This document shows positions 6,001 to 55,093 of a DNA stretch of 64,000 nucleotides, one piece after another. Where the stretch lies: IMG/VR virus record IMGVR_UViG_3300021400_000136, positions 16,152 to 80,151 of that record, one strand, 5' to 3'. Both the position numbers and the translations under genes were made by a program. Below the pieces are notes generated by a model. That model saw nothing but the letters and a program-made list of their open reading frames with translations, was not told where the DNA came from and ran no database searches. Numbering within the stretch: position 1 is the stretch's first letter; every line of letters starts with the position of its first letter. Origin of the DNA: a virus (lineage: Duplodnaviria > Caudoviricetes).

Positions 6001-9000
6001 GATTCTATGACACTCTCATGGACGGTGGTACGGAAAGATCTGTTATTGTTCTGCACAAAGACAGCTTCACCGAAAAGAACATCCAACACGAATACATGCA
6101 CCATATGCTCCGAAAGATGTCTGAGCGTCAGAAGCGCGGATTTCTTACCAGCGCTATCCGGACAATGTTTGGATCACGCCAGGATCTCTTCGAAGAACTG
6201 TTTGACTCCTACAAGATCGACTATGCAATTGCTCATGGCAGAGTGATCGATGAGAACGGCAGAGTGGATGAAGATCTCGCATATATTATATATGAAGAGA
6301 TGGTCGCCGACTTCTATGCAGGACTCAATCGATTCAAGACCCCCGAGATGGCAGAAGCGATGGGGCCGCTCGTCAGGGAGATGCGTGTAAGCCTGTACAA
6401 TTACTGTGAGAGACTTGGACTTGAGGACTACGCCAGATCAAAATGGATTAACAGAGAGTATACTCCTAAAGAAGGAACTCTGGACATCCGGAGAACCGGT
6501 AGAGCCACTGCGCCGTATGAGCAGCAGTTCAAAGAAAGAACTGAATCAGACAACGAACTGGCAAAGGGCGAACACCGATTCAATCCAGAGCGAAATGCTT
6601 ATGAGGCGCGATTTAGTTTGGCCAATACTATGGGTGGAATCTACGACACATATGGTGTGGACATTAATACTGCCGAGGATAGCAGACTTGACGAACTGGC
6701 GAGGCAAATCGACGAGGAGTACGAGGCAGCGCAAAAAGAGCAGGCTGACATTCGAAGCACATGGACGGATAAGGACTACGCAGATCTCACTCCCGATGAA
6801 TATTGGGCCCGATATCATGAGTGGAATGAGCAGTCTGGCATTGACGCCGTAAAACGTCGCGTCGATACACTTGGGTCGTACAGTCGTGCAATCAGCAAAG
6901 AGAAAGCTTGGAGAGCGATAGACCCAGAGGCCCTTATTCAAAAGGCAAAAGATATCTACGGAACCACTGATGACTTCCGGAAATCTGGGTACATCCTGCC
7001 GGATGGAACGATGTTGGATATGTCCCAGGGTGCCAACAAGCGGACTCTGTTCCACCATGAGACCGCTCAAGAAGTTCTGTTCGCCTTGAAGTATCCGGCT
7101 TCAGACGCAATTGAAAAATTCGTAGGTCGTGGCGGGGCCATCAGAATCGATGTAGACTCCGATGGTATTGATATCCCGCAAAGTGGCATGACCCCGGCTC
7201 AGTACGAAACCCTGCGCGACTTTCTTTCTGACTTCATAGCTACTGAAGACTACGATAGAGCAGCATTCTATGTATCTACTTTTGGTAAGAACCTGGGAAC
7301 GTCGGAGAGATTTAATCCTTCCAATACCACACAGATCTTAAACGCAATTCGCCAGTACTACGATACAGGTTCCTTCCCGAAACAGTCAACCACACAGCAG
7401 TTCTACGGTAGATATAGCCTGGCCAACACAGAAGCTGTATCTCTTGACGAACTTCAGACAGCTCGTGATGAGATGCTTGATCTGCGTCAGCAGCTCAGAG
7501 ATCGTAAGGCTGATGTCGATGAGTGGAGCCGTAGAATTATGGCTGGTGAAGCTGAGATCGACGACTACAATAAGTGGCTGTCCGATAGCGGTTACAACAG
7601 ACTCTACATGCAGGAACGTGAGGCAAGCAAACGGTATAACGACCTCAACCGCGCTTATGACGAGCAGCAGGAGAGCGCGAATGCCGAAGCCGAGCAGAAC
7701 GCAATAGAACAGTCCGGCTTATCCGAAGCAGATTACTTTGGCAAAGAAGCCGTAAAGGTATTTGGTTATACACCGTACTTCTATGACGCTGGGTACATTA
7801 CTCCGAACGGACGGATGCTGAACTTCTCCGGTGAGAAAGGTAAGCACTATGGCTCTCGAGGCCAGGATCACCGGAGCATAGGCCAGATCTTTGCGGTAAC
7901 TTCCGGCACAGAAGCCATGAACAGGTTTATCAGCTATGGTAATATCCGCATTATGGCAGAGGCTCCAGGCCTGGATATCAGCGCGAATATCGAACCGACA
8001 GCAGAGCAGTACTCTAGGATCCGTGACTTCGCAAGGAGCGCACGGGATGAGGACTACTTCAGTATCGATATCACGGGCGAAGATGGTAGGGTCATTGATA
8101 CAATCGAGTACGAAAGCGTCAACCCAGCGAAGATAGTAAACGATCTGAAGAACTACTACCGTACTGGTGAAGTACCGCAGCAGTCTGTTACTGCGCAGTT
8201 CCATGCTAGCTTTAGCCTTGTTGGCGTTTCAGATGATGGTATGGAGGTATACGAAACCTCTCAAGCCGTAAAAGATATGACCAGGGAAGAACGTATGGAC
8301 GCTTTCGAAGCACGAATGGCTAACGAGTTCAGAGGCCGTACCGCTAGATTCGAAAGAAACGGTCATATCTACTATGCTAAGTTCGATAGTACTGGCGTTT
8401 CTAAAAATATCTATGGGGACGACAAGTCTGATCAGTCCGGATGGAGAGCCAAGATAAGAGCCGGAGCAGATGGCGATATCTTTGATCTGATAGAGAATTC
8501 TACTTATAATGGCAGCAGCGCAGAAAAGAGTGGAAAAAAAGGTAAGGCCCATAACAAGACCCAACGCTGGGACTACTTCATAAAGAAGGTCCAGATCGAT
8601 GGTATTGTGTATGACCTCACTGCAAATGTAAGACGTAAAAACGATGACTTCGTTTATAATATCCAGCTTAACCGGGATATTAATACAAAACCGGCGACGT
8701 CTTACAGCCCACTCCCGAAGGCGGGTTTTAACCAAGACATCGCCGGTACAGATAATGTATCACAAAACGGCTCAACTGTCAAGTACAGTAAGCAGGAACA
8801 TCCGAATGCTAGGTACAGCCTGTGCGCATTTGAAGACGGCACAAAGTTCGTAAACGTCGAAACAGATCAAGAACAGTTTGATGGACTAACGGATAAAGAA
8901 AAGCGCGACTTAGCAGAAAAAATAATAAAAGAGCGGTTCTCCGGGAGAATAATCGGTGAGACGAACAAAGCCTTCGTCAATAGCCAGACTGCAAGAGAGT

Positions 9001-12000
9001 ATGCTTATCCGTCAAAACGCCTTACAGATAGTGGGGTACTTGACGCTAAGATGAGGGCGTCAACCGAACTAGATAATCTACTGGAGGCCGGTAGTAATTT
9101 TAGGACGGCACCTGATGGGGCTGACGGGCATACACACCCAGACGCCGTAGGAGGATTCACTTATTTTGACACGCTGTTTAAAGTAGGTGAGGAATTCTAT
9201 AAAGGTCTTGTCAATATTAAGAATAATGCCAAGGGCGCTCTTCTAGTAGATATTACAAAAATAGAAAACGTCACTAAGGACACATACAACTCATACGGAA
9301 AAAATCCGAAGTTCGTATTCCTTAATGACGTTTCTAATGATATTAAATCACAGAATAACCCGAATGTCAAGAACCAAAATGAATCTGAGCCGAGCTACTC
9401 CATCGCTGTCTCCGATCCCGATACGTTGGACTTCCTTAACGACCAACTCGAGAACGGGGATGTAGTTTACACCTACAAATCCTTCCTTGAGTACGAAGAC
9501 GAGAATGGAGATCCGTATCTAATTGCTCCTATGGCTGGTGTGCAGAAAGACGAGACGGGCAAGAAGAGCCAGTCGCATGCCCTTCGTCCAGGTGTGTGGG
9601 AAGAGTCTGTTGGTAATCCCAACTCTAAGAGCCTCGGTAAGAAAGTCAATGACAAGACCGGTGAAGTATCCTGGACTTATGGACTTGAGAAGAGTGACGT
9701 AGATGGTTCTGTTGTACCGGCTGCATATAACCCGTATCAGCACTCCAGTGATGTAGTTCTCAATGACCAGTTCTCCATTGCGTACAAACGTCCAAACCTG
9801 GTAACGTATATGTGCGCTATTCCTAAGAGTGAACTGACCAGTGGCTATCACTTTGGTGTAACCGATCCTGAGAAGGCAACTCGTTCTGACGGCGATATTG
9901 TTACCGCAAAAGACGCGGTTGGTATGCACGACTGGAAGAGCGGTTCCCTAGCAAGCCAGTTAGAAAACACACAAAGACATGTGTATCTTTCTCGGTGGCT
10001 CATGCCGGTACGTAAGCTGTCCAACATAGAAGTTGCTCAGCAGTACAAGGAGATCCTCGATAGGGAAGCACCCGGTCTTGGTGTGCCATTCAATGTTGTA
10101 CCTTCCGGTTTGCTCTCAGCTCTTCAGGAAGTTGGCGTTCCAATTGACCTTACTGGTACAGGACTATCTGAAGCCAACTACAGAAAATATCTTTCTGAAG
10201 TAAACGCTGCTCGTGAAGAGGCAGGTCTTGAACCGTTCCCGTACTCTTATCAGACTAAAGCCGAAAGAGATGCCGCAAAGAAAGAACGGAAGAACGCTTC
10301 CAAACGGTTCTCGATCTCTGGAGACAACCTTGATAATCTTGACGATCTTCTGATGGATTATGATCTTTCGGATCTCGGAAGAATAGTTTCTGACACATTT
10401 GGTTCTACCTTTGAAACAGAAGAGGACGAAATGCCTCCTGAACTTCCGTACGAACAACAGCGTCCTAGAAGATCTGTAGAGAACCCGACTCACAATCCAA
10501 CTGCTTATCTGAAACCAGAAACACTAAATGCATGGCTGTCCGGAAGGGGCTTTGCCGATACAGGTAACCCGAACTATGCGCAGGCTTACATCGGATGGAT
10601 GAATCCAGAGGACTTCCTATACTTGACAACCTCTACCTATGATTACGAGGACAATAGAGTAAGGGCGGAAGGATACTACGGTGATCTGGAAGATATCTCT
10701 AGCAGGGCGCAACGTGGAAGAGAAGCCGATACAATTCATCTTTCAATTGATTCTGAAACAGGAAGAGTATACGGGCATGAAGGGCGCCATCGTATGGCCT
10801 ACCTGCAAAGCCTTGGTGTGGAGAGAGTCCCTGTTCTTTTCTTTGACAGCGGAAATAAGTATGATAAGGAAATAATGGAGGACTATACTCTATCTGGAGA
10901 GCAGAGGCCAGGGAAGAAAGTTACTCTCGATAATCCTCTGATCCCTCTCAGCAATGGGTACAGAGGGCTTGTCGAGAACGAGTTCGTTAAAGGCGAAGAG
11001 CAAGACAACGATCTTCAGACAGCGCGATTTTCCATCACGGACGATTCGAATGCCGATGGCTATACTCTGTCAGATATTGATTCCACAGGAAGAGAATTGA
11101 CGGACGAGCAGTATTACTACTTCCGCAATTCGAAAGTAGTGGACGAAGATGGGCATTTAATTCCGCTTTACCATGGAACGAATGCATTCGGCTTTACCGA
11201 GATAGACTTCGATAAAGCAGACGATGGAATATCCTTCTTCCTCACGGATAGTCCAGAAGTGGCCGGGTCCTATACAAGGAACAATACTGTCCGATCCTTA
11301 TTTGATAAGCAAAGACAGCGGCGGGCGATTGATGTATCAAAGCTTTCGGATGAAGATCTAGCTTCGCTGTTTTCCCAAGTTAGTATACCGTACTTCGAAT
11401 CAGCTACCGTATCGAAATTTGAGGATGTACTCAGAACCTTCACAGGCCCATTGAACGCCGCAAAAATGCGATACGCCAGTTTCTTTGAAGAAGAACTGTT
11501 ACCGTCCAGAGAAGATCTTGGCCTTACTGAAACGGACTTAGCCTTCTACGACGCGCTGAAAGGCAACAGCACTAGTGTCGAAAGCATCATAGATTTGCTT
11601 GATAGAGCAGATAAATTCTATTATAGCCTTCGCAAAAAGATATGGGATACCGACGAAAGCTATATTTGGGACGAAATGCGATCGCTGCAACCGCAATTAC
11701 AAACCGCAGCTTCTCAGGCACAAAGATTTCTGGCTGACCATAATTCTGCTGGAGTATCTTTGGAGGATAATGTTTTTATTACGGATCCAGGTAGCAAGAA
11801 TTTCTACACGAGAGAGCAAATCGAGAGACTTACTGGCAGAAGACAAGAGGAAGAAGAGCTCGGAAGGAACTCTGCCGGTATTTACAAGGGGTACGCAAAT
11901 CTAACAAATCCATTTATTGTTGATGCAAATGGAGCTGAATGGAATCAGATTCCGGTCGATCAAGAAGTAGTAGACTATCTAAAAGCACTTAATTCGCCAG

Positions 12001-15000
12001 AGTTCTACGTCTCAGAATGGGCAGAAGACGGAGAGGTTAAAACAAGGGGAATAGCTAAGTACGCAAAGGATCACGGATATGACGGCGCTATAATTAGAAA
12101 CTGTGTTGACATCGGAGAGTATAAGCGTTCCTACGACTACGAAGCGTATTCTACTCCGGCAACTCTGGTGCTATGCTTTGAACAGAATCAGTTCAAAGAC
12201 TATAGAAATACAGAACCTACTGATGGCATTGATTTAAGATTTTCTATTGCCGATACCTATGACGCCTTTGGAGATGAAATCGATGTCCAAGATGGAACAG
12301 TTCTGAATGCAACCAAGTCCACACTTTCTGATCAGCTTTTCTATTCTGAAGACGGTAATACCGCCTACTACCAGCTCGACTCTGGTGAGACGGTGGTTAT
12401 GGAGAACGTAGGGGAAGACTCTCCCGAAGCACGATACATTAATTTCTTGGAGGCAACGAACAATGCCAACAGTACTGACACAACCACAGCAAAACCTTAT
12501 ACGATACCTCCTGCAACTCGGTATGAATCTGATGGATATAATATCGGTGAATCGAATGATGGCCTACGACGAGGAGCGGAAGAAGTTCCTTCGGCGAATC
12601 AAGAAGGAACACTTCGACGTGCAGGAAGTAATGGAGAACGCAATGAACAGAGTCAACCGCAGAGTGAAGAGGCGGAAGGTGTAAGGTTCTCTGCCACTAT
12701 CCCGACAGCTGACGACCCGAACCATCCGACAGCCTTCGTCAACCAGAACGGCGATGTGGTTACCACTGCTGAAGCTTACCCGTACGGATCTATGGAGCGC
12801 ATGATCATCGAGGCATGGAACACTGGTGACTTCAGATCTATTGAGGACCAGATTAACGAAATGCTCGATATCGGCCACGCCAGAGATGAAGTCTTCGATA
12901 TGATGGAAGAGATCGCTGCACAGCCTCTGGGGCTTACTCCTCAGGAGCGCGACGCAGTCTACAGACAGATCGAAGAGATGCGTGTACGGTATGGAACGAT
13001 GCCGTCGGCGAATGTTACGAAGCGGGATGTACATTTCCCAGTAGCTACAGACGACGACACCAAACTGATGAAGGGCGCACAGACCCATGCACAGGAGGCC
13101 GAGACCGAGTGGCTGTCTGAAGAGATCATGGCAGAAGCACTCCGTAACGAGATTCTCTCCTATGTCCCTGCATCTAATAAGTCCTCCATCGAAAAAGCGG
13201 AAGACTATATCAAAGCGAAGAAAGGTAATTACGAAGAGATCGCAAGAGATGTCCACGCTTGGCTGGCATCCGGAGAGCGTGTCAAACCGTGGCAGGTAGC
13301 AGTCGGCGAACTCCTTCTTAAAGAGGTAGAAACCGAAGGCAGAGCAGACCTCGCTATGTCTCTCGTAATAGACCTTACTCTTATGGCCCATGAAACCGGA
13401 CAGGCTCTGCAAGCTTTCGCTATTCTCCGGAAGGCGACTCCGCGTGGACAGCTCTACTATCTGCAAGGTGTTGTTAACCAACTGAATAAAAAGTATGAGA
13501 AACAGATCCGAGAAGGGAAGATGGGCAAGATCGAACTTCCGCAGGATGCTGCGCAGAGAATGCTCGCATGCGAAACACGGCAGGAACTGAATGACGTAGT
13601 CGAGGAAATAAAGGACGAGATCGCGAAAAAGATTCCTGTATCATGGGCTGATCGCTGGAACGCATGGAGATACCTGGCTATGTTGGGTAACCCCAGAACA
13701 CACGTTCGTAACATGCTTGGTAACGGCCTGTTCCGTCCCGCCGTATTTATCAAAGACGTTATCTCCAGAAGACTGGAGGATATAGCAAGTAGGCACGGCA
13801 AGCTGGAAGGTAGGTCTCGTATAGCAGGAGCGAATCTGAAATCCGATACGGAATGGATGCGCTATGCCAACGAAGACTATGAGGAAATGTACAAGATCCT
13901 TGTAGGCGAGGCAACCGGTAATAAGTATGCTGATGCCAACGACATCCTCTCCAGACGAGATCTCTGGGGTAAAGACAAGTGGCTCGGTGGTAAGTTCCTT
14001 GCATGGGCAGACCGTAAGAACAGCGACTTACTTACTAAGGAAGATGCTACATTCCTAAAGAAGTACTACACCAGAGCGTTTGCAGAATTCCTGCAGGCGA
14101 GGGGTGTAACGGAAGAAGATCTCCGTGATAAGAAGTTTGGCGCTACCAAGGCAAATAAGAAGCTCATCAACGAAGCAAGAGCATGGGCAACAATCGAGGC
14201 TCAGAGGAATACCTACCGTGATGCCAATGCAGTAGCTTCCTGGCTTAACTCCATGAAGCGTCAGGGTACTGTTCCTTACACAATCCTCGAAGGTGTTGTT
14301 CCGTTCACCAAGACCCCGATGAACATCCTTGCCCGTGGTATTGAGTACTCTCCGATTGGACTGATTCAGAGCGTACGGCAACTGGCTAAAGATCTTCGTA
14401 GTCCGAGCGAGATGACCACCAGCCAAGCGCTGGATAGACTCGCTGCCGGTATGACCGGTACGATGATCGTTGGCCTCGGCCTGTTCCTCACTGCTATGGG
14501 CTGGCTCCGTGGAAGTGGTGGAGATGATGATAAGAAGAAAGAGTTCGAAGAGCTCATGGGTCATCAGGCATGGTCTCTTGAACTGTTTGGCTACAGCTAC
14601 ACCATCGACTGGATGGCACCGGCTGCACTGCCACTCTTCATTGGCTCCGCTATCTACGATATGCTGGCGACAGAAAGGGAAGAGGAGCTCGGCTTCGAAG
14701 ATATCGTCAAGGCACTGCTTGGTATAGCGGATCCTCTCAGCCAGTTGTCCATGCTGGATGGTATCTCTACTATGCTCTCCAACCTGGCGGATGCACAGGG
14801 GACGGAACAATTCTCCGTATTACTCTGGACTGCACTGACAAGCTATGTTGGACAGGGTATGCCTACACTCCTTGGGCAGGTAGCTAGAACATTCGATCCG
14901 GATAGACGGTCAACGTATATCCAGCCGGGTAGCAAAAACCCGATGCTGCAGCGGTTTATCCAGTCCTCCATACAGGCTAAGATCCCGGGTTGGGAGAACC

Positions 15001-17177
15001 AGAAGATGCGGTATGTGGATAACTGGGGTAGAACAGACTCAGCCAATACACCTTGGGAGAAATTCCTAAAGGGCGTTGAGAACTTCCTTTCACCGGGTTA
15101 TCTGAACAAGATCGAGACCTCCGCTGTTGAGGACGAGCTGATGAGGCTGTACGAAGCAACCGGAGATAAGAACATTCTGCCAGACAGAATGGGTAAGTAC
15201 TTCCAGGTTGACGGAGAACGGAAGAACCTCACAGCAGATGAGTACGAGCAATTGCTCACGGAAAAAGGACAGATGCACTATAACCTTCTGAACGAGGTTA
15301 TGTCCTCTGAGTATTACGCTTCTCTGACTGATGAACAAAAGGCAAAGCTGCTCCTCAACGCTGGAGAATTCTCAAAGAACTACGGCAAGCAGATGGTAGA
15401 TCCAGAGTTCGATATGGACAGCCACTGGATGGATGTAGCAAGGGCAATAGGCCCCGCCGATTATCTGATGATCCAGGATGATCTTTCCCACAACAGGACT
15501 CATGACCAGCTGTTCACCTACCTTGTATCCAATCCGAATCTCAGCTACGATCAGATCGCATATCTCATCGCTGATGAATATGCCGCTCCGGACAAGATTC
15601 CCAGTGTCGGTAACAACGGCTACAACTATGAGATCACTGAGGAAGATGAGGCAGCGATGCAGGAGATCTTCAAAGATCTGGTACATACGCGCCTTGCTGA
15701 ATTAGAGACTGATCCCAGGTATGTTGCAGGCGATGAGTACAAGAAGGGCGATATGATGGACAACCTCTATAATGAAATTAAAGAGGATGTCAAAACAATA
15801 TACGCCGAACAGCTCGATGCATCCGACCGTCCGATGGTACTTGGAAAGGCATCTTCTGTAGGAACCGAGTCCTTTAATATGGTACTCGATCTTACACGTA
15901 ACGAGATCGAAGGAGAGTACAGGGATGACATCGCAGCACAGGCTGGATGGTTAAGCCAGAAGTACCGGGCTGACTCCCAGATCAGTAACCCCGATAGAGA
16001 CGGCTGGGATATCAAGCTCAGTGCTGATGACAAGGACGAGCTGTATGATGAATTCCAGAAAGCTTGGGAGCCTGCATACAGAAAGATGCTTACTGAAGAT
16101 CCTGAGTTCCGCAACGCCACAAGCCGAGCATATCAGGATAAGATGATAGCATCCTTGTTCAATGAAGTTTCCCAGCAGGTAGAAGATGCATACGCTTCTA
16201 AACTGTACAAGTCCGGTAAGGCTGATGAAGTCATCGGCGATCCGAAGGGGACGGCAAAGAAAGACTGGCTGAAGAACTATGAGATTGCCAACGAAGCCTA
16301 CACCAATCCTAAGGATCAGGCAGCGTGGTTAGCAAAGAGATTTACCGGTGCTACCACTTTGGACAACCCCGACAGACCTGGGTACAATATCAAGACGAGC
16401 GATGCACAGCAGGCTCAACTTGCTCAGATCGAACAGGATAGATTCACTGCCGAATATGAAGCAATGAAGAAAGATCCGAAGTTCAAGAGCATGACACCGG
16501 AAGAGCAGGCTATCCAGACATACCAGCTGGCGCAGAACATCATGGATGTCGAAGAGGCCAAATACTCCAGATATCTGCTGGATAGAGGCGCAAAGATCGA
16601 ACAGGCAATCGATACTCAGTGCACGAATTCTGAATACTTCAATATGGTATTCTCAGAAGATCTCACTGATAGCGAACGGTACGACCTGATCGAACAACGC
16701 TATGACAGATATGTTGGTAAGAGTATTCTCAATAACTCCCTCGACTACCTCCAGCAGCACCAACGTGTCGGGTACTACATGGACTACGTACGTGAGAACA
16801 TGTATAAAGTCGCTGGACTTACCGGAGCAGAGGAAGCAGAAGCTTATATCAAGAAGATCCATGAACCGGCGATGAAGGCATCCGGAAATGCGATCAAGGC
16901 AGACTATAATTTAGCCAAGACCACGGCGGAGGCAGATGACGCGGCAAAGATAGCAGCCGGATATAACTACGGTATGCATCTCGGAACGGATCTGAATACT
17001 GTGGCGCCTAACACTACACCGGCGGAGGCTTCGGTAAGACCGAGGAACGGATATGTTATACCTCCTGCGGCTACAGAGAATACGCCAGAAACAAAACAAA
17101 GAACCAACTCTGGACTCGTGATCCCGACAGCTAACGAAGCTGTACAGGACGCATTCAAGTACAGAAGGTTCTGGTAA
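3..17177 (+). CDS. Giant polyvalent virion-associated protein (at least 5,724 aa, 5'-truncated by the window edge); contains an HExxH zincin, duplicated unknown domains, LPD3-like domains, ParB-like and ART-like domains, and a conserved internal-virion-type C-terminal region
   Basis: ORF track 102..17177; the same frame is open from position 3 (EESYDKRQFK...), so the true start lies upstream. Motifs: HEYMH (6087-6101), GHEGRHR (10773-10793), YHGT (11169-11180), and C-terminal WRYLAMLGNPRTHVRN / PFTKTPMNI / YTIDWMAP blocks typical of large phage polyvalent proteins. Confidence 0.9.
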   Translation, partial: EESYDKRQFKAPPIPIFSTEATREEQRLADLQIMRQAIQGARDAAQYKNDEIMFGRKYIGQDNTIAAWDAAEAALEANAPTADSTPEEKAAYNHERRYIQERIDACEYKAFVDEYADVSDSDIRQELFEMRFGNGETTTEDSADTNDTAHNLLTAKSAYDAAEEAFNEIAETARPTSAEYLDAYQAMKEAEAAYAEALQLAKDESKLDVGEIFDFSAFADILSGAPEENELSAEEQKRAEYLQRLLQDREISAIQEEIKSYEKDYPDGTAMRHWAEDIELDVEKKEAALLDAQTEAGKLDAEAYQYATVDAHSTENHTPEEAAQKAQEAKDAHNRALIAEQELAEAKGKLALVQALNQTSIRSEADYAEQVAKGKEMAGDIAQYKEAIDTAMDVGLDRKPAVDALVTQFGLTQEDAEKYVDMYFTLDEKERAVLFPNVDGVEEEEQGWLGKWWDKVTRSPYLGEKEVGKFTDEELNDFYYHLAKEGASAAAQYAMGVNNAYRNEYNDLAKERFMQLQNYRAGHNGKFQTAVEAAMMPVGNFALNLTALPEAISNFIQAEKLGMSVAPTDPTNSQLAEWAQESSSRQVTAMLPNFKPAEFLYNTYNSIVNSALSLATFSALGSALGLTDDIVIGGKGALQAFVSAATDLEFFGSAAASRYRELLEQGVDPQKAGWASVYSGLAEAMFEHFSIENLYHAKGVADWHNALDWAWHTACSAGVEGSEELFTNWANRLGDALYLKEDNPFNDSVDAYIAQGFEEDQALRFAMHDLLKEDALSFLGGAISGGVNAGSSSMMEWQIDKNKLADFRASQGKNFNIDLPNGKKASQELGTYLWNHEFIRPGDEHLFNEGQRNTVEEIKDLAWKASEGKASDEEIGRLQYLTAQFDSKVLDDFALANKDWYGRVEPMRLVQVSQEALNKLLGPENAQKYLEAVRANPHAKVENDFSLGLQQAVPNMGSNEASEVAGFLERIFTGSDRTTPEDIAKVLDSELLSSPEAQMYLWNYLKDKVPTDTPAIEVAAPAEPSGLTPSAEWAGQNVKREPSPIKPASQMETDSGTEAADREPTPIPSAEQAAENEKSREEAEAKAREEIQNPFIPIMQSIGMDPNITSENVGEALKNLLTTTWERAKEAAYQNQILKNGLSDTNRKLNDMQHEAAEQQTRDRLNRAPKGIKTDALAQYRDDSDSITFGNNTTTRKEFVEAYMKGYDPFNDKEIKGPKDEKAANRAFDRILLNSTTKDGLPLEGVKASMKNYDLSLRKAIVSDTKKGTGEPKDLERNGEPKAQEPASGKLNVQTPTDNSADMKEGTATGTEVTRNGEPDQTEPTDSKLNVQNPTDDSADMKDGTGTGTEVTRKGEPEQTEPTGGKLNVQTPADTSSDTTTGQTSVDGSELSRTEKPAEETPVEDQTTEEVAPDKAQQFLDYLQVMMQQTGEMTDEEFNALFGGATDTILDALVGREPANDFERRVIDAATREMDRRTSEDQTMAQQDEAPASAETSDFKTDDNLFATNGKEDKSWRSWDDTINNPDSNDDEIITRAEFVERAMNGVGKIKPMTFAEANDLFDDLAYIDEHDSDTNTDYGKKGSNPMYSAGGASTGASVATGSELNMKPVTYSASDVPGLVELGRTSYSPSNRTISSSDRSWGDAISNEYGKTITRAEFVAAAMSGQNLYSGTRMPTISGVAANDLFDDIVDNKIAYGGYADRTNNGYSITDATVTADMLNAPGFVGAMANTLAILEAEMRSASDTSNQKLAPFMKRVDLARKQLEGLLGRSVSDAATEVTDVRNQINTRLAEINNRLEVLMSRSDQNKIGYLVDLKEMSQLRAERQKLMTQTFRLGQAEAKYTKALDRLNSARNRMYSNDYYSYIGGKLYGGPAGTRGLTGRNNDVAQSRSGGSVTGSAGGSAQSVQGNAGTVSEQTFKTVEEILSAGGLTLRGKVLFDSAGMSPQEIANAKIPLSLRNSILHAMRNGVGRVVLTDGDLLNGKSYINEKGKEVEQTVGGFYDTLMDGGTERSVIVLHKDSFTEKNIQHEYMHHMLRKMSERQKRGFLTSAIRTMFGSRQDLFEELFDSYKIDYAIAHGRVIDENGRVDEDLAYIIYEEMVADFYAGLNRFKTPEMAEAMGPLVREMRVSLYNYCERLGLEDYARSKWINREYTPKEGTLDIRRTGRATAPYEQQFKERTESDNELAKGEHRFNPERNAYEARFSLANTMGGIYDTYGVDINTAEDSRLDELARQIDEEYEAAQKEQADIRSTWTDKDYADLTPDEYWARYHEWNEQSGIDAVKRRVDTLGSYSRAISKEKAWRAIDPEALIQKAKDIYGTTDDFRKSGYILPDGTMLDMSQGANKRTLFHHETAQEVLFALKYPASDAIEKFVGRGGAIRIDVDSDGIDIPQSGMTPAQYETLRDFLSDFIATEDYDRAAFYVSTFGKNLGTSERFNPSNTTQILNAIRQYYDTGSFPKQSTTQQFYGRYSLANTEAVSLDELQTARDEMLDLRQQLRDRKADVDEWSRRIMAGEAEIDDYNKWLSDSGYNRLYMQEREASKRYNDLNRAYDEQQESANAEAEQNAIEQSGLSEADYFGKEAVKVFGYTPYFYDAGYITPNGRMLNFSGEKGKHYGSRGQDHRSIGQIFAVTSGTEAMNRFISYGNIRIMAEAPGLDISANIEPTAEQYSRIRDFARSARDEDYFSIDITGEDGRVIDTIEYESVNPAKIVNDLKNYYRTGEVPQQSVTAQFHASFSLVGVSDDGMEVYETSQAVKDMTREERMDAFEARMANEFRGRTARFERNGHIYYAKFDSTGVSKNIYGDDKSDQSGWRAKIRAGADGDIFDLIENSTYNGSSAEKSGKKGKAHNKTQRWDYFIKKVQIDGIVYDLTANVRRKNDDFVYNIQLNRDINTKPATSYSPLPKAGFNQDIAGTDNVSQNGSTVKYSKQEHPNARYSLCAFEDGTKFVNVETDQEQFDGLTDKEKRDLAEKIIKERFSGRIIGETNKAFVNSQTAREYAYPSKRLTDSGVLDAKMRASTELDNLLEAGSNFRTAPDGADGHTHPDAVGGFTYFDTLFKVGEEFYKGLVNIKNNAKGALLVDITKIENVTKDTYNSYGKNPKFVFLNDVSNDIKSQNNPNVKNQNESEPSYSIAVSDPDTLDFLNDQLENGDVVYTYKSFLEYEDENGDPYLIAPMAGVQKDETGKKSQSHALRPGVWEESVGNPNSKSLGKKVNDKTGEVSWTYGLEKSDVDGSVVPAAYNPYQHSSDVVLNDQFSIAYKRPNLVTYMCAIPKSELTSGYHFGVTDPEKATRSDGDIVTAKDAVGMHDWKSGSLASQLENTQRHVYLSRWLMPVRKLSNIEVAQQYKEILDREAPGLGVPFNVVPSGLLSALQEVGVPIDLTGTGLSEANYRKYLSEVNAAREEAGLEPFPYSYQTKAERDAAKKERKNASKRFSISGDNLDNLDDLLMDYDLSDLGRIVSDTFGSTFETEEDEMPPELPYEQQRPRRSVENPTHNPTAYLKPETLNAWLSGRGFADTGNPNYAQAYIGWMNPEDFLYLTTSTYDYEDNRVRAEGYYGDLEDISSRAQRGREADTIHLSIDSETGRVYGHEGRHRMAYLQSLGVERVPVLFFDSGNKYDKEIMEDYTLSGEQRPGKKVTLDNPLIPLSNGYRGLVENEFVKGEEQDNDLQTARFSITDDSNADGYTLSDIDSTGRELTDEQYYYFRNSKVVDEDGHLIPLYHGTNAFGFTEIDFDKADDGISFFLTDSPEVAGSYTRNNTVRSLFDKQRQRRAIDVSKLSDEDLASLFSQVSIPYFESATVSKFEDVLRTFTGPLNAAKMRYASFFEEELLPSREDLGLTETDLAFYDALKGNSTSVESIIDLLDRADKFYYSLRKKIWDTDESYIWDEMRSLQPQLQTAASQAQRFLADHNSAGVSLEDNVFITDPGSKNFYTREQIERLTGRRQEEEELGRNSAGIYKGYANLTNPFIVDANGAEWNQIPVDQEVVDYLKALNSPEFYVSEWAEDGEVKTRGIAKYAKDHGYDGAIIRNCVDIGEYKRSYDYEAYSTPATLVLCFEQNQFKDYRNTEPTDGIDLRFSIADTYDAFGDEIDVQDGTVLNATKSTLSDQLFYSEDGNTAYYQLDSGETVVMENVGEDSPEARYINFLEATNNANSTDTTTAKPYTIPPATRYESDGYNIGESNDGLRRGAEEVPSANQEGTLRRAGSNGERNEQSQPQSEEAEGVRFSATIPTADDPNHPTAFVNQNGDVVTTAEAYPYGSMERMIIEAWNTGDFRSIEDQINEMLDIGHARDEVFDMMEEIAAQPLGLTPQERDAVYRQIEEMRVRYGTMPSANVTKRDVHFPVATDDDTKLMKGAQTHAQEAETEWLSEEIMAEALRNEILSYVPASNKSSIEKAEDYIKAKKGNYEEIARDVHAWLASGERVKPWQVAVGELLLKEVETEGRADLAMSLVIDLTLMAHETGQALQAFAILRKATPRGQLYYLQGVVNQLNKKYEKQIREGKMGKIELPQDAAQRMLACETRQELNDVVEEIKDEIAKKIPVSWADRWNAWRYLAMLGNPRTHVRNMLGNGLFRPAVFIKDVISRRLEDIASRHGKLEGRSRIAGANLKSDTEWMRYANEDYEEMYKILVGEATGNKYADANDILSRRDLWGKDKWLGGKFLAWADRKNSDLLTKEDATFLKKYYTRAFAEFLQARGVTEEDLRDKKFGATKANKKLINEARAWATIEAQRNTYRDANAVASWLNSMKRQGTVPYTILEGVVPFTKTPMNILARGIEYSPIGLIQSVRQLAKDLRSPSEMTTSQALDRLAAGMTGTMIVGLGLFLTAMGWLRGSGGDDDKKKEFEELMGHQAWSLELFGYSYTIDWMAPAALPLFIGSAIYDMLATEREEELGFEDIVKALLGIADPLSQLSMLDGISTMLSNLADAQGTEQFSVLLWTALTSYVGQGMPTLLGQVARTFDPDRRSTYIQPGSKNPMLQRFIQSSIQAKIPGWENQKMRYVDNWGRTDSANTPWEKFLKGVENFLSPGYLNKIETSAVEDELMRLYEATGDKNILPDRMGKYFQVDGERKNLTADEYEQLLTEKGQMHYNLLNEVMSSEYYASLTDEQKAKLLLNAGEFSKNYGKQMVDPEFDMDSHWMDVARAIGPADYLMIQDDLSHNRTHDQLFTYLVSNPNLSYDQIAYLIADEYAAPDKIPSVGNNGYNYEITEEDEAAMQEIFKDLVHTRLAELETDPRYVAGDEYKKGDMMDNLYNEIKEDVKTIYAEQLDASDRPMVLGKASSVGTESFNMVLDLTRNEIEGEYRDDIAAQAGWLSQKYRADSQISNPDRDGWDIKLSADDKDELYDEFQKAWEPAYRKMLTEDPEFRNATSRAYQDKMIASLFNEVSQQVEDAYASKLYKSGKADEVIGDPKGTAKKDWLKNYEIANEAYTNPKDQAAWLAKRFTGATTLDNPDRPGYNIKTSDAQQAQLAQIEQDRFTAEYEAMKKDPKFKSMTPEEQAIQTYQLAQNIMDVEEAKYSRYLLDRGAKIEQAIDTQCTNSEYFNMVFSEDLTDSERYDLIEQRYDRYVGKSILNNSLDYLQQHQRVGYYMDYVRENMYKVAGLTGAEEAEAYIKKIHEPAMKASGNAIKADYNLAKTTAEADDAAKIAAGYNYGMHLGTDLNTVAPNTTPAEASVRPRNGYVIPPAATENTPETKQRTNSGLVIPTANEAVQDAFKYRRFW
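3828..4128 (+). repeat. In-frame 114-bp (38-aa) tandem repeat, about 2.6 copies, inside the giant gene
   Basis: AAGCTTAATG recurs at 3870, 3984 and 4098; protein unit approximately EVTRxGEPxQTEPTxxKLNVQxPTDxSADMKxGTxTGT. Confidence 0.9.
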
Positions 17178-39024: not shown

Positions 39025-39041
39025 ATAGTGAATTTTAATAG

Positions 39042-39128
39042 GACCAGGGGTGGGATTCGAACCCACATGGATATTCTCCAACGGTATGCACACTACCGAT
39101 ACGCGCCTACCAATTGCGCCGCCCTGGC
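39042..39128 (-). tRNA. Atypical class II tRNA with an elongated anticodon arm (loop GT-GTG-CA)
   Basis: GCCAGGG/CCCTGGT acceptor, GCGC D-stem, Leu-like variable arm GGA-GAATA-TCC, canonical T-arm; anticodon region about 4-5 nt longer than in the adjacent tRNA-Leu. Confidence 0.7.
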
Positions 39129-39212: not shown

Positions 39213-39405
39213 GGGTGTGTGGGATTTCCACCCACGCGGCTTGGTTTCAACCTGCGACCCTACTGGTGGGCCAGCTGCCATGAGGTAGATGAAAGGAGGT
39301 GGGTGTTCGCGACCACCGACACAGGTAGCATAGCCAGTTGCTGCATGTGCCTAAAACGCATATCAGAAATCCGTTCGTGCCATTGGACTCCGCGACAAGT
39401 CCGGC
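39213..39405 (-). ncRNA. Unidentified structured RNA inside the tRNA cluster
   Basis: Several hairpins, a T-arm-like GTGGG-TGGAAAT-CCCAC at the 3' end, and an internal CACCTCCTTTC; boundaries inferred from the flanking tRNAs. Confidence 0.5.
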
Positions 39406-39418
39406 ATAGATACGTAAG

Positions 39419-42336: not shown

Positions 42337-44535
42337 TTACTTCTTCAGTCTATCCATCCCGTCCTCATTCGCCTTGTCGATAAGAAAGTACTTCAGATCG
42401 ACGAGAAACTCGGGCGGATCGAGCAGGATCTTCAGCGCATCGTTGTATGCCTTGACATCCTTGTCTCGGATTGGAAGCTTCTCCCTGATGGCCTGCTCGA
42501 GGGTGGCCTCGGCTGCGGAGATCTTCAGCAGGGCATCAGCTTTCTCCGGCCCATCCTTTTTAACAGACTCGAGGTATGCCTTCTTCGCACTGTCCTCGTA
42601 CTCCTCCAGCTCTGCCTCTTCATCATCCTCATCTTTCTCCCCATCGTCATCGATGGAGGTAAGGAAGTCGATGAATTCTTTGAAGTCTTTAAACTCCTTC
42701 TCTTCCAGTGGTGTGTCATCGATATCATCAATATCGATAGGGCAGGTGTCCTTACCTTCACAGGTGGACTCGTCCTCGTCGTCCGGTACGGTACGCTTGA
42801 TGGTGATCTCCACATCGTCGTCGCCATTGATAACTTCATTCAACAGATCTTTGATGGTCATGTTAATAATCCTCCAAATTTATATCTACATCAGAGCTGT
42901 TGTCCCTGTTGTAGTCGTAGTCAATCGCACAGTCACTCGGTGCTCCCCAGTGTTTGCACCAATCATGGTTGCGAATGTTGTCGATCCTGTGCCCATCACA
43001 CAAACATTCTCCGGTGTACCAGTCGTCCTCACTATGCAGCATCTTGTTACAGTTAAGGCAGTACCTTATCTTCTGCTTCTTCATCCCGCCCTCCTAGGTA
43101 CAAGCTCTCGGTACAGTTCTCCGATGTACTCGTATCCTTTCGGACAAGTCCGCGCCTTGGTCGTACGATACTTTACCCGCTTGCCCGTCTCTTTGTTCTT
43201 ACAGAGGATGATGTAGTTCCAGACAATATCCTCTATGCCGAACCTCCTGCAGAGAGTGCAAATGGAGTTGATCGCCGTCACAGCAGCAGCAGCCTGGAGT
43301 TTGTAGTAGCCTGTGCGGATCGGCTGAACTACTTTCCTCGCATCGACACCGTGCTCCAGCAGCAGCTTGATATGTTCCTCGATCCAGTCCAGTTGCCATT
43401 GCTCCGGCGGCTTCCTTTCCGGAACAGCCTGCGGATAGCATGTATCCCCACGGAGACCTTTGATCTTGTTATTAAGCTTTTCGTGGTTATACTTCGTGCT
43501 CATCGTCGGCATCCTCCTTAAACCATTCCTCAATCGGTACTGTCGTGCACCGGAGAGGTAAGATGCATTGATCACACCAGGGGCTTATCCATCCTGTACT
43601 GATCCGTGTAGCAGGAGCACCACAGTTGATGCATGTCCTTTTTGACAGCTCCTCGTACTTCGGGATGATCTCCCGGAAGATCTTGTCCGTGCCACCAAAG
43701 TCGCACCATCTCAGCTCGCCGTACTTCTCTTTGATCTGCGTGACCCTGTACTTGTCCACACAGTTGTGCTCGACCAGCTCCTGCATGATCTCCTCGCACA
43801 TCTGTTCGCCGAATGCTTTACGCCATCCCTCTGGCATATCATCCAGCTTGGTGTACTCCCAGTCGTAATCGGGGTGATGGTCTGGTGATCCCGGCCAGTA
43901 GCCTTCTTCACCGTCTGGACCACAGCAATCCGTGATCCGCTTACCGCTCCACTCATTAGTAGGAATGAGGAATGGGAACCGCTTGCACAATTTTTTGTTC
44001 CGCTTCTTTACAGACTTCGGAACCTCCGGAGAAGTAGCCTCGACAATTACGCTGTTCTCCATGTCCTGATAGCTATCACTCATCGTCGGCCTCCGTGGAT
44101 ACAATATCGAAGGCCTCACCAAGCTGCGCCAAACAGTCGGCCAGGTGAAACACCATGTCCTTCAGACTTCCAAGGGTGTAGCCCTCAAGACACTTCTCCT
44201 GCTCCTCGTGAGTCAGATCAGAGAAACATCTATCCTCCCACCTGCCATTCCGCAGGACTCTAAAGTAGATCCCATCCAGATCTCTCTTAACAGGGATCTC
44301 TTCCTTATTACTCATCGTCTTTCTCCGTTTCGTTCAAGTCATAGTCATCGCCGAGTCTCATTATCGTATCGGTCATGATGTTCAGCATGGTGTATAGCCA
44401 CTCTCGATCCCGTCCATTCATCTGGATCTTCCGCTCTTCTTCAGTGAGATCGGAGAAGCATACGTTCTGCATTCTTCCATTCCGGCCTACTCTAAATCTG
44501 ACCGGATCTAAACTTCTTTGTTCTGGGTATACCAT
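42337..44535 (-). other. Accessory ORFs: 42337..42861 (very acidic), 42863..43084 (Cys-rich), 43081..about 43510, 43487..about 44083 (QIKEKYGELRW family), 44076..44315 and 44308..44535 (paralogous FRVxRNGR...CFSDLT)
   Basis: ORF track, same strand, coupled. Confidence 0.65.
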
Positions 44536-44661
44536 ATGTTGTGTTTCCTTAATTCGCTATGCATGAATAAATATGCATTTATTCATTTTAAACTTTTCCG
44601 CGCCTCATAACCTGCGCATCCCGATAGTGTATAATAGGGTATAAATTCTTTTCCACATTTT

Positions 44662-44873
44662 ATCCTGGCCTCTGCCCCTTCTCGCTGCCCTTCTGCATAT
44701 CAAAGTCTGTTGAGGTAGAGTCAGAAAGGAATGTATATGAAGGCAACATATTTAAAAAGGAAAGAAGTGATGCTCAGGAGGTAGGGTTAAATGATCGACC
44801 GGCCAAAGTCAATCTCGCTCTATTGAGCAACGAACTACGAAGGGCAGGGAGAAAAAGCAGAGGCCTGTAGGAT
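44662..44873 (-). ncRNA. Putative structured ncRNA of about 210 nt with a long closing stem and pyrimidine-rich anti-SD loops
   Basis: Arms 44662-44693 and 44839-44873 form about 31 bp; G-U pairs are possible only on the - strand; no ORF. Confidence 0.65.
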
Positions 44874-44903
44874 CAAACGTAGGAGGAAAGGAATAGAAGA
44901 AAC

Positions 44904-45398
44904 TTATTCACCGATTGGCTTTTCTATCTCGGACCAGTAGAGTACATGGCCATTGAATCGGTCATCTGTTTTCCCGCCAGCACCATCGAGGTATCGCCAC
45001 TCGCCATTCACTGCGTCAAAGAACAGGGTCAAATACCGGAGTGCTGAGCTGTACTTCAGCTTGAATGCGGCAAGGTAGAAACCGTCACGCTTCGGAAGAT
45101 AGAAGTTGGAGTCAACCCAAGGTGTGTCCTGTTCCACTCCGAGGATCTCAGGCACCGATGTTTTCAGCACAAGGGCTATAGCCTTAATGATCTGCATGTC
45201 ACGGGGTCTGTTTCCTTTCCGCTCCAGACTTGCTATCCCGCATCTCGACAGCCCAACCATGTTCGCCAGCTGCTGCTGTGACAGTCCTGCTTTCAATCTG
45301 TACTTCCGTATCTGGTTAGGGGGAGTGGTGTAGTCATGTGCTGGCTTGTAATTCGCGGCTGTAATTGGTCTGCCTGGTTTATTCATCGGATTATCCAT
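44904..45398 (-). CDS. XRE/Cro-like HTH protein with a C-terminal extra domain
   Basis: IRKYRLKAGLSQQQLANMVGLSRCGIASLE. Confidence 0.8.
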   Translation of the reverse strand: MDNPMNKPGRPITAANYKPAHDYTTPPNQIRKYRLKAGLSQQQLANMVGLSRCGIASLERKGNRPRDMQIIKAIALVLKTSVPEILGVEQDTPWVDSNFYLPKRDGFYLAAFKLKYSSALRYLTLFFDAVNGEWRYLDGAGGKTDDRFNGHVLYWSEIEKPIGE

Positions 45399-45401
45399 AC
45401 A

Positions 45402-45849: not shown

Positions 45850-46194
45850 ATGTCAACCACGGAACTGTCCAGAAGATTAAATGCTTTAAGAACATACCTA
45901 GGCCTGTCACAGGAGCGAGCGGCTAAGCAGCTTGGCATCCCACGGACTACCCTGTCGGGCTGGGAGAGGGGAGCAAGAGAGCCAGATGCTGAGTCACTGA
46001 AGAAGCTTGCCGACCTCTACCATTGTACGATTGATTACATCCTCGGCTATGCAGAGGACGGAGTTGATGAAGAGCTGTCTCCCAACCAGAAGGTGCTGTT
46101 CAACAAACTCCGTGGCTGCACAGATGAGGAGGCTAAGCAGGTACTGGATATCCTTGCTGTGGTCCAGAGGAATAAGAACCCGTCGGATTACTGA
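45850..46194 (+). CDS. XRE-family repressor (CI/ImmR-like)
   Basis: LRTYLGLSQERAAKQLGIPRTTLSGWERGAREP...IDYILG. Confidence 0.85.
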   Translation: MSTTELSRRLNALRTYLGLSQERAAKQLGIPRTTLSGWERGAREPDAESLKKLADLYHCTIDYILGYAEDGVDEELSPNQKVLFNKLRGCTDEEAKQVLDILAVVQRNKNPSDY

Positions 46195-52800: not shown

Positions 52801-55093
52801 TGCAGGGTTTCCATTGTTCTCATTCTTATATCCTCCATAATTACATTTTATTTTGAGACCGGACAGGATGTAGAGTCCTGCCCACGCACCATGCCTGACT
52901 CCTGTTTATACTCGCATGGTCGAGTGTGGTATCAATCCTCTTCTATGCAACCATCGTCTTCTGTAGATGACTCATCCCAATCGATGTCCATGTCTTCAGC
53001 GAGTTCTTCTGCTTCTTCAAGGGATTCGGCTTGTACTGTGATTGTGCCAAGCATGCTGTACAGGAATGTGTATGTTTTCATTGTTCAATCCTCCTCTGTC
53101 TCCGGCAGGTATCCAAATCTCTGCCCATCTGATATTGTTTGGTAGATTACAGCCCATCCGGCTTCAATCATTTTCTCTTGCAGGTGCTCCCAATTGATTG
53201 CTCCGAGTACGCTCTGTATCCGTTCATCTGTTGCTTTGATTCCGTCGTAGCTTTCCAGTGCTTCCGCAATATCTGCTTCTGTCCAGTAGGTTTCTGCATA
53301 TCTTTCCATTGTTCAATCCTCCTTAACAGCTTTGTTATAGATCTCAACAGCTTTCATTAATGCAGTGCCGCAGTACAGCCAATTGTCTTCGCCCTTCCAC
53401 ACATGGTACATCGGCTGACGTCCATGCATGTCGTCGTTTGGTTTGTCCTTACTGATAAACAGTGCCGTGTCTCCGTGTTCTTCTAGTAACCACAATTCTT
53501 TTTCATTAGGGCGGAAGGACTCTGCCCATCTTTCACGCATGGTCTTCTTTGCCATTGTTATATCCTCCTGTTAGATGTAGTTCTTTACGACACGTTCTTT
53601 GTTGTCGCTGTCGTAGCGCGTAATGTAGAGGTATTCTATATCCTGCGGCCTATGGTTCCTGTAGATGTCGCCCGCAATGAATACAGCTTGATCTATGTTG
53701 TGACATGCCTGCCGTACCTCTTTGTATCCGTTCACATGTTTGAAGTGTACATATCTGAGATTGCTTTCCATTATTCAATCCTCCTGTTATCGTGTGTATT
53801 CCACAAGATACTTTCCGTGTTCACGGAATCCGAAACGCTGGTGCTGTGCTGTTTCGTATGCTGTGTTGTATTGATCAATTTCATATACTCTCCATCTGTC
53901 TTCCGGAGAATCCCACTTGTACATTTCACGGTTCAGAATCTCCGCAATCTGTTCGGCCTTGACTCGTCTCTGTGGTACTCTATGCGCATGCTTTATGCTG
54001 AACATGAAGTCTTTTCCGAATCTTGTTTTAGATACGATAAGCATTATTCAATCCTCCTGTTATTATCCGTATATCCGGACGATTCTGTTTGTTAGTCTGG
54101 TAATTTCTCTTTTCGTTTTTGTCCAAGCTTCTTTCGACGTTCTTCCTTTATATACTTTCGTTTCTTGTGCTCCGGTGATGCAGTTTAGAAATTCCGTTTC
54201 GACTGCATAGTATCCATCTGCTGTTCTGTATTCTTTGTATTTCATTTCAAGAAGTTTTCTAAGCATTGCTTTATCCTCCATCATATTTCTTTTTCCATGA
54301 TGCTGCATTTGCCGTACCAAAAAGTATCTGTGTAATTCTCAAGTGCATATTCTGCATCAGCCCGTTTAGTGAATGGGCCGCAAAGTGTTTTTCCGTTTTC
54401 GCTTTTCACAAAGTATATTGTCATTGTGCTATCCCTCCATTAGATCTTTTTTCTTCCGGGCCAGCCATAAACTCTGGCGACAAAAGGCCGGATGCTTTTT
54501 GTGTACTTCTTTATATCGTTTTCAGATACTTCACCATAAACTAATTTATTCAGAAAAGTATCTTTCTGACTTTCGCTTATTCCCTTTCTCCATGTTCTGT
54601 AGCGATAATAGTTTGTGCCGTCATGATGTATTCCTGTATATCTCATGTCCTTATCATCGCAATACCATTCACAATAATCGCAATCGTTATATAGGCAGTC
54701 CTTAATGTTTCCTGACTTAATGATCTTGTATCCATTTCGTCTACCATTCCACAATCCTAAGTCTCCAATTACAATAATTTCGTCACCGACATTTACATTC
54801 AGATTGTACCGTTCATCATCAAGAGAGATAGCATTCTGCTCATCAATCCATTCATAGAGCTGATCATCAGTCTCACAGCTCGTCATTTCATTATCCAATA
54901 TGTCACAGCACTCTTGATAGTATTCACGCCAGGCGTCTATATTAATATCGATGTTTTGCCAGATTATCATTTTGTTTTCTTTCATTGTTATATCCTCCAT
55001 CATATTTCTTTCGGCATGCATGCCGTGTAATTGTTTCGTTTCTGCTGTGGCTTTTCTTCCTGTGCAGCGTATCCAATTAAAGACACGCTGCAC
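49799..55093 (-). other. Early-gene cluster of small, mostly acidic proteins: 49799..50041, 50109..50414, 50611..50901, 50903..51169, 51172..about 51440, 51438..51761, 51776..52078, 52094..52429, 52443..about 52823, 52932..53081, 53085..53309, 53313..53555, 53571..53771, 53787..54044, 54063..54266, 54440..54985
   Basis: ORF track plus manual translation; most starts are preceded by (A/T)GGAGGAT(A/T)N5ATG. Confidence 0.7.

Follow-up and report, generated by a model that had tools for sequence, protein, structure and literature searches.

Introduction

RNase III hairpins lie between early cistrons at the R sites of phage T7 and at the sites of phage SP82, and in pre-16S rRNA a stem joins distant strands. 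The c4 RNA of P1/P7 and the CI RNA of P4, each ~77–80 nt long, depend on RNase P for their processing, and their targets in the same operon are exactly complementary to them. In lambda, the nut signal is a short boxA/boxB element and tR1 is a Rho terminator, with no long-range helix there, and the stem of Y RNA is the docking site for Ro60. We know of almost no regulatory RNAs in phages of anaerobic gut Bacillota. In RsaE/RoxS, C-rich motifs bind Shine–Dalgarno (SD) sequences and the resulting duplexes are then cut by RNase III (PMC6158497). An anti-SD motif is likewise held by the 3′ untranslated region (UTR) of the icaR repressor gene (PMC3868564).

Here a covariation-supported RNA family is described that is in no database and that lies in the immunity/early-control region of temperate phages, where small changes decide between lysis and lysogeny. 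The stretch analysed (the window, 64 000 nucleotides) corresponds to bases 16152–80151 of IMGVR_UViG_3300021400_000136, an 80,151-bp phage record of IMG/VR with direct terminal repeats. The public sequencing runs holding this stretch are DNA runs from ruminant-gut samples (contigs), with no RNA run among the holders, and the carriers of the element are a small clade of uncultured temperate ruminant-gut phages. The record encodes a tyrosine integrase, a family A DNA polymerase, a DUF2800 nuclease, an Enc34-type SSB, an SNF2 helicase, a primase-helicase, a terminase and a P22-type portal. A giant ORF (102–17177, +), open from the window start, encodes a putative protein of 5,691 aa.

Genomic context of the element

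The immunity region contains a CI-like XRE gene (45850–46194, +; Pfam, PHROG) that faces a − strand operon. The first genes of this operon encode a 73-aa membrane protein and then a 164-aa XRE-type HTH protein (44904–45398, −), which matches Pfam HTH_3 and is a transcriptional repressor or regulator by PHROG; its stop codon is at 44904–44906. A likely early promoter, TTGCAT-17 nt-TATAGT (45714–45686, −), was read from the sequence at a place where a consensus scan raised no flag, and it would likely drive a single RNA that spans the element together with the 73-aa and HTH genes. The HTH gene is followed by a gap of 368 nt and then by small genes and replication genes. The element lies inside this gap, starting 24 nt past the HTH stop codon, and all of the genes flanking it are on the − strand, downstream of the promoter-like site. 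It is the 3′ UTR of the XRE-HTH gene and is part of the predicted − strand polycistronic RNA of the early (Cro-side) operon, right after the XRE-HTH gene. Neither a promoter-like site nor a U-tailed terminator of its own was found flanking the element, which therefore may never exist as a free RNA.

Alignments also identified conserved boxes beyond the element, UAUACCCUAU...CGGGA at 44620–44645 (−) and GGCGCGG at 44598–44604 (−). In the window (44598–44645) and in relatives L100, L101, L102 and L105, the boxes UAUACCCUAUCGGGA and GGCGCGGAUAU stand upstream of the next gene. The second of these is present in helix-less relatives too, and the GGCGCGGAUA box is also found in L101 and L102, both of which are without the helix. 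The window has a 10-nt insertion between CCCUAU and CGGGA. The boxes probably lie outside the RNA fold and serve to control the next genes as a site of their own; they may represent an operator or promoter of the delayed-early genes. As a promoter, the UAUACCC box gave no convincing hexamer pair on either strand.

Two observations were made on the genes that follow. Downstream of the element, two genes of 75 and 79 aa (44076–44535, −) are paralogues, being ~40–44 % identical in cross-matches. An AT-rich palindrome (44563–44586) with 10-bp arms, ATGAATAAAT and ATTTATTCAT, closely precedes the 75-aa gene's ribosome-binding site and looks like an operator.

A long-range helix with compensatory changes

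A first-pass annotation of the window had described a closing stem of about 31 bp. This stem is real and recurs in six lineages, and the minimum free energy fold of the − strand (44655–44880) extends it to ~40 pairs, G·U pairs and outer extensions included (−87 kcal/mol, z = −6.42, with none of 200 shuffles as good). The + strand of the same stretch folds at −80.4 kcal/mol (z = −3.5). An inverted-repeat search placed the arms at 44667–44693 and 44839–44865, with 145 nt between them. Both arms are delimited by the fold, the inverted repeat, the register table and covariation.

The 5′ flank, from the HTH stop codon to the helix (44881–44903, −), is C/U-rich and carries CCUCC at 44886–44882. All of the motifs quoted in the first-pass annotation, including this one just 5′ of the stem, are where it had placed them. 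The flanking CCUCC is shared by the window clade, the G004 clade and G005; L100 and L105 have CUCC only. The 5′ arm (44839–44880, −) is pyrimidine-rich and reads, from the outside inwards, ACGUUU, G, AUCCU, an ACA bulge, the H2 segment (44865–44849), a mismatched C (44848) and the H1 segment (CUGCCCUUC, 44847–44839). The 3′ arm (44655–44693, −) is purine-rich; it begins with its side of H1 (GAAGGGCAG, 44693–44685) and continues outwards through a mismatched C (44684), H2 (44683–44667), AGGAU (44666–44662) and AAAUGU (44660–44655). A 20-mer of this arm, AGGGCAGCGAGAAGGGGCAG, is identical in three viral records. G·U pairs on the − strand, where the + strand would have C·A mismatches, had been reported at several places in the stem, and this asymmetry is present where UUU (44856–44854) stands opposite GGG (44678–44676), with more wobbles in the inner GUA/UGC and the outer ACGUUU/AAAUGU segments. 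The two inner hairpins that had been drawn within the stem do form in the window (44815–44830 and 44792–44813) and are restricted to its own clade.

Covariation was assessed in 11 sequences with a register anchored on the invariant arm cores, comprising nine inner pairs, a conserved C·C mismatch and 16 outer pairs. This anchored register was used instead of a MAFFT alignment, in which the 5′ arm of L105 and L107 was misaligned. Of the cells of the 25-pair register, 98.9 % pair, and 13 of the 25 pairs have compensatory double changes. Among 1000 column shuffles, one reached the compensatory count of 13 and none reached the level of pairing, and registers slid against each other paired at 47–60 % only. 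An independent MAFFT alignment, evaluated with RNAalifold and a pair count, yielded 23 pairs with 98.6 % paired, a result reached by none of 500 shuffles. Beyond the register, the outer helix consists of lineage-specific, unrelated sequence that still pairs in each lineage. Contigs from other animals contained both one-sided and paired changes, with the helix kept or extended.

Across lineages the closing helix measures 25–45 bp, and in each of them the 9 + 16 registered pairs plus the outer extensions provide the 20 bp or more (about two turns) of largely Watson–Crick duplex that an RNase III site requires. Wobble cells comprised 23 G·U against one A·C on the − strand, or 13 against none with one representative per lineage, and hairpins made of the arms only were more stable on the − strand in five of six sequences. 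A wobble bias of 23 : 1 would be absent from a DNA repeat or a + strand RNA, and the folded molecule is therefore the − strand RNA, in agreement with the strand originally proposed. The structure is almost certainly real and under selection, and very probably the element is a − strand RNA, in the sense orientation of the operon. Sequence as well as pairing is kept in the inner helix and its C·C mismatch, which suggests a specific protein or a determinant of cleavage.

Distribution among related phages

Protein-anchored and pattern searches found the element in six diverged phage lineages. Among their members are the window, L003 and L098 (window clade), G004, G003 and L042 (G004 clade), L015 (G005 lineage), L100 (L100 lineage), and L105, L106 and L107 (L105 clade). 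Every copy directly follows, on the 3′ side, an orthologue of this XRE-HTH gene, and the gene order is constant (CI-like gene, 73-aa gene, HTH gene, element, small genes, 211-aa gene). Identity of the HTH protein between clades is only about 28–48 %, whereas the arm cores of the element are nearly identical, with CCCUGCCCUY and AGGGCAGCGA in the helix arms almost invariant across lineages. Other HTH orthologues are without the element and run into the next gene after a gap of 76 nt (L101), 14 nt (L109) or 26 nt (P0088 contig); the element is therefore an optional module. It is also absent from the related phages G001 and L011. In G001, a 107-kb relative, the element's place (L010:2080-2376, +) is taken by a canonical TTGACT-17-TATAAT promoter and then a leader of ~230 nt, which precedes the 211-aa gene's homologue. 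In L102, a C/U-rich gap was considered as a homologue of the element's interior and did not score above shuffles.

Database searches returned syntenic copies only. In the viral and metagenome collections and in 185,579 species genomes, every true match lies after the HTH gene, and the GenBank phage collection contained no match to window positions 44300–45400. A BLAST search for a second copy in the same phage genome found none, the only matches being of 10–15 nt with chance E-values. A metagenome pattern scan with the 3′ arm gave 22 matches, 20 of them attributable to chance, and a scan of the genome collection with the 5′ arm gave 48, all chance, with no prophage copy. A word-indexed protein search returned one near-identical HTH protein only. 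With a single copy per phage genome, syntenic matches only and no dispersed copies, a miniature inverted-repeat transposable element was rejected; a retron ncRNA (msr-msd) was also rejected, as the neighbouring ORFs encode 73–211 aa and contain no RT domain in Pfam or PHROGs.

At the gathering threshold, Rfam 15 identified only three tRNAs and a Pistol ribozyme in the whole window. The latter is a full-length match to RF02679 at 52854–52925 (−), with 52.5 bits against a gathering score of 34.5. For window positions 44500–44950, lowering stringency to E up to 10 added noise of 11–14 bits only, with no 6S RNA, RsaE, Y RNA or phage pRNA. The earlier remark that no described family is known to match the element holds for Rfam.

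A pyrimidine-rich interior with anti-SD boxes

The helix encloses an interior of 145 nt in the window (44694–44838, −) that is 62 % pyrimidine and 15 % G, with a mean unpaired probability of 0.58. Across lineages the interior is 94–151 nt long and contains 62–65 % pyrimidine (U ~35–38 %, C ~25–28 %) and 7–16 % G, against 44 % pyrimidine in the surrounding sense strand, with mean unpaired probabilities of 0.56–0.76. Between clades, the interiors could be aligned neither by BLAST nor by MAFFT. In the window the interior carries, on the − strand, a CCUCC(U) box (44781–44776) and the boxes CUUCUUUCCUUUUU (44767–44754), UCCUUUCU (44730–44723) and CUACCUCA (44718–44711).

The motif UCCUUUC occurs in all six lineages, with an unpaired probability of 0.71–0.99. 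Exact CCUCC is found zero to two times per interior, usually unpaired, and is missing from the interior of L100; taken together, the UCCUUUC and CCUCC boxes have unpaired probabilities mostly of 0.7–0.99 in all lineages. Individual boxes differ between close relatives. The window has CCUCC at 44781–44777 with CACUUC beside it and L003 has both boxes, while in L098 and in the contig of run X12 the CCUCC at 44781–44777 is lost and a neighbouring CCCUCC is present. Six-mers of the 16S 3′ tail, the part of the rRNA by which ribosome-binding sites are recognized, were enriched over dinucleotide shuffles in the six lineages (p 0.001–0.013), the lineages being related and the tests not independent, and the tail used being the general Bacillota sequence rather than the host's own. 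On its own, CCUCC was weakly enriched (p 0.02–0.19). The longest strings common to the interiors and the 16S tail are of 8–10 nt. The multiple anti-SD loops reported in the first-pass annotation were therefore retained as a class of boxes, conserved and enriched in every lineage, and not as a fixed architecture, since individual boxes come and go.

Neither of two coding candidates was conserved, these being the + strand mini-ORFs behind GGAGG and a 30-aa ORF without an SD on the sense strand.

Targets of the boxes were sought within the phages. An RNAduplex scan of the element's neighbourhood did not single out translation starts. Comparison of the interiors with ribosome-binding sites showed that sites of a phage's own operon paired no better than those of other lineages, with Watson–Crick runs of 5–9 nt in both cognate and non-cognate pairs, and no co-varying cognate ribosome-binding site was found. 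The first-pass annotation had suggested that the boxes would sequester strong SD sequences, to shut off host translation or to silence early genes of the phage itself. Rather than a single cognate gene, the putative targets seem to be strong GGAGG/AAAGGA sites in general; AAAGGAGG is an example of a strong SD sequence.

A second structured RNA in the tRNA cluster

Between tRNA-Gln and tRNA-Ile, a 205-nt spacer (39213–39417, −) forms a structured RNA whose conservation extends over four phage lineages. In it, 52 pairs were predicted by RNAalifold, six of them with compensatory changes; CCCACCUCCUUUC is invariant and the 3′ hairpin is T-arm-like. Folded alone, the spacer RNA had a z-score of +0.44, and Rfam returned no match to it up to E = 10. 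According to the prediction, its CCACC is base-paired. The first-pass annotation had linked this RNA to the helix element through a shared 9-mer, TGAGGTAGA. The 9-mer is indeed identical at 39281 and 44711; the link itself fails, since 608 of 5000 shuffles (12 %) share a 9-mer too and the closest relative's copy of the 39.3-kb RNA is without it, that stretch reading differently. The spacer RNA and the helix element are separate objects. ARAGORN also called an 88-nt tRNA-His (GUG) at 39041–39128 (−) that was not reported by the Rfam tRNA model and that may be aberrant or intron-bearing.

Discussion

The reading preferred here, put forward tentatively, takes the element for an optional RNA module lying within the operon, with a helix that is probably cut by RNase III and C/U boxes that pair with SD-type sequences. 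A helix of this length would be a natural substrate for the host RNase III, and cleavage would excise the module from the operon RNA, leaving a discrete RNA of ~150–200 nt with paired ends. The cut would release the interior and part the cistrons on either side of it, in the manner of pre-rRNA and of the early RNAs of T7 and SP82. The exposed C/U boxes would then pair with purine-rich SD regions and damp translation initiation, and the duplexes between box and SD may add further RNase III sites, as with the C-rich motifs of RsaE/RoxS, RNAIII and the icaR 3′ UTR. Processing by RNase III is probable, given the established specificity of the enzyme. That the boxes act as anti-SD sequences, whether in trans or in cis, is suggested more hesitantly, by analogy with the same three RNAs. 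The strict sequence conservation of the inner helix exceeds the need of RNase III and points to another, putative partner.

An alternative that is not very likely, and that deserves weighing, is that the element serves only processing or stability, as an intercistronic RNase III site or a 3′-end protector with the interior as spacer. The helix would then part the immediate-early unit (the 73-aa and HTH genes) from the later genes, with a purine-free interior that lets the arms meet. Its length, its conservation and its place between cistrons of one operon fit this account, as do the conserved control box that follows the helix and exists without it too, the impossibility of aligning the interior between lineages and the failure to find a specific target. 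A spacer, however, would not keep UCCUUUC in all six lineages or an enrichment of 16S-tail words over dinucleotide shuffles, nor would it swap one CCUCC for a neighbouring one, and the 94–151 enclosed nucleotides are not needed by a simple RNase III site.

A more novel reading, for which the chances are rather low, would make the element a miniature 'pre-rRNA', an early RNA excised by RNase III and showing several copies of the 16S 3′ tail. Such a free anti-SD would compete with ribosomes for strongly SD-led messages or would act as a decoy for a factor of the 16S tail. If this were true, it would amount to global, sequence-class-specific control of translation during the lysis–lysogeny decision.

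Action in cis, in the manner of the icaR 3′ UTR, is doubtful. The boxes would fold back on SDs of the same operon RNA, so that the HTH regulator or the 73-aa gene is throttled and RNase III decay closes an autoregulatory loop in the lysis–lysogeny switch. Like the icaR 3′ UTR (PMC3868564), the element immediately follows a regulator gene. CUACCUCC has a complement in the window in GGGGGUAG of the HTH gene (with one G·U) and in L003 in GGAGGUAG, and UCCUUUCU is complementary to AGAAAGGA in the initiation region of the 73-aa gene. Such cognate pairs are nevertheless no longer than non-cognate ones (5–9 nt Watson–Crick runs in both), the first-gene initiation regions of G004 and L105 are without a strong SD, and once the helix were cut, the boxes would no longer be attached to the cistrons upstream.

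The map position after the Cro-side regulator and before the replication genes is that of lambda nutR-tR1 and raises the idea, improbable on balance, of a termination/antitermination site in which the interior loads Rho and a phage or host factor on the helix decides on read-through into the delayed-early genes. An interior with 7–16 % G and 62–65 % pyrimidine that is mostly unpaired would suit Rho, and an inner helix with its C·C mismatch conserved in sequence, not in pairing alone, would suit a factor that reads it. Rho-loading sites are typically C-rich and G-poor, with some 80 nt of unstructured RNA, however, whereas in the interior U exceeds C (about 37 % against 26 %); moreover, no known antiterminator gene was recognized nearby (Pfam, PHROG), and in relatives that lack the element the same genes follow each other directly.

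Conservation of the inner helix beyond the needs of pairing would be expected as well if the helix with its C·C mismatch docked a protein, or if a mimic of the 16S tail diverted a factor or nuclease whose usual substrate is the 16S rRNA 3′ end. The layout, with paired ends and a pyrimidine-rich internal region, is that of Y RNA, and the 8–10-nt identities with the 16S tail would fit a decoy. This account is entirely speculative and very improbable: there is no Rfam match to Y RNA or another family and no candidate partner gene co-occurs with the element, the HTH gene existing without it too. Finally, a purine-rich + strand RNA (a GGA/GGAGG-rich sponge or the leader of a mini-ORF) or a DNA-level inverted repeat (paired operators, a cruciform or a miniature transposable element) is scarcely credible, for although the + strand also folds and has SD-plus-ATG combinations and the arms resemble terminal inverted repeats, the − strand has 23 G·U cells against one A·C, which would not pair on the + strand or within a DNA site that is symmetric, the + strand starts and peptides are not conserved (ATG is ACG in L003 and L098, and the ORFs of 3–11 codons are unrelated), and there are no copies elsewhere in the phage genome and only syntenic ones in the species genomes and the viral and metagenome collections.

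Should the boxes of the preferred RNase III-excised module act on SD sites, these phages would be using the 'C-rich seed' logic of RsaE/RoxS and RNAIII, delivered by a phage RNA as an operon-excised cassette that copies the 16S tail. As a tool, the module would then be compact and transplantable and would damp translation class-wide. If the interior is functionless, the element still shows clearly that a temperate phage operon can carry a long-range processing helix.

Among described systems, the T7 and SP82 sites share with the element a long helix between early cistrons, and pre-rRNA shares the enclosure of an RNA by distant strands, with its predicted release. The T7 and SP82 sites differ in being local hairpins of ~50–60 nt that enclose nothing, and the rRNA stems in enclosing 1.5 kb. 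The P1/P7 c4 and P4 CI RNAs are also small RNAs cut from a phage immunity or early transcript and act on ribosome-binding or leader regions of their own phage, whereas for the element no exact target sites were found by the duplex scan or the comparison of ribosome-binding sites. The element has its map place in common with lambda nutR-tR1, between the Cro-side regulator and the delayed-early and replication genes, but no N-like gene was recognized.

The icaR mRNA of Staphylococcus aureus offers a further parallel, with an anti-SD motif 3′ of a regulator gene and an SD pairing that is an RNase III substrate (PMC3868564); unlike the element, it has a single UCCCCUG motif whose cognate SD in that mRNA is defined, and it is not enclosed by a helix. 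Among the C-rich small RNAs of Bacillota, RsaE/RoxS, RNAIII and others resemble the element in having several unpaired C/U-rich boxes complementary to SDs, and their partner nuclease is RNase III (PMC6158497). They are stand-alone genes of ~100–500 nt with UCCC/CCCC boxes and with a promoter and terminator of their own, whereas the element lies inside a phage operon, has a closing helix of 25–45 bp and boxes of the 16S-tail type (UCCUUUC, CCUCC), and shows no sequence match to them. Of the features that define C-rich SD-targeting small RNAs, it has the unpaired SD-complementary boxes and is without the independent promoter and intrinsic terminator. In its presumed working, the element most resembles a C-rich SD-targeting RNA joined to the kind of processing helix that phages have between cistrons, and it is a member of the families of neither.
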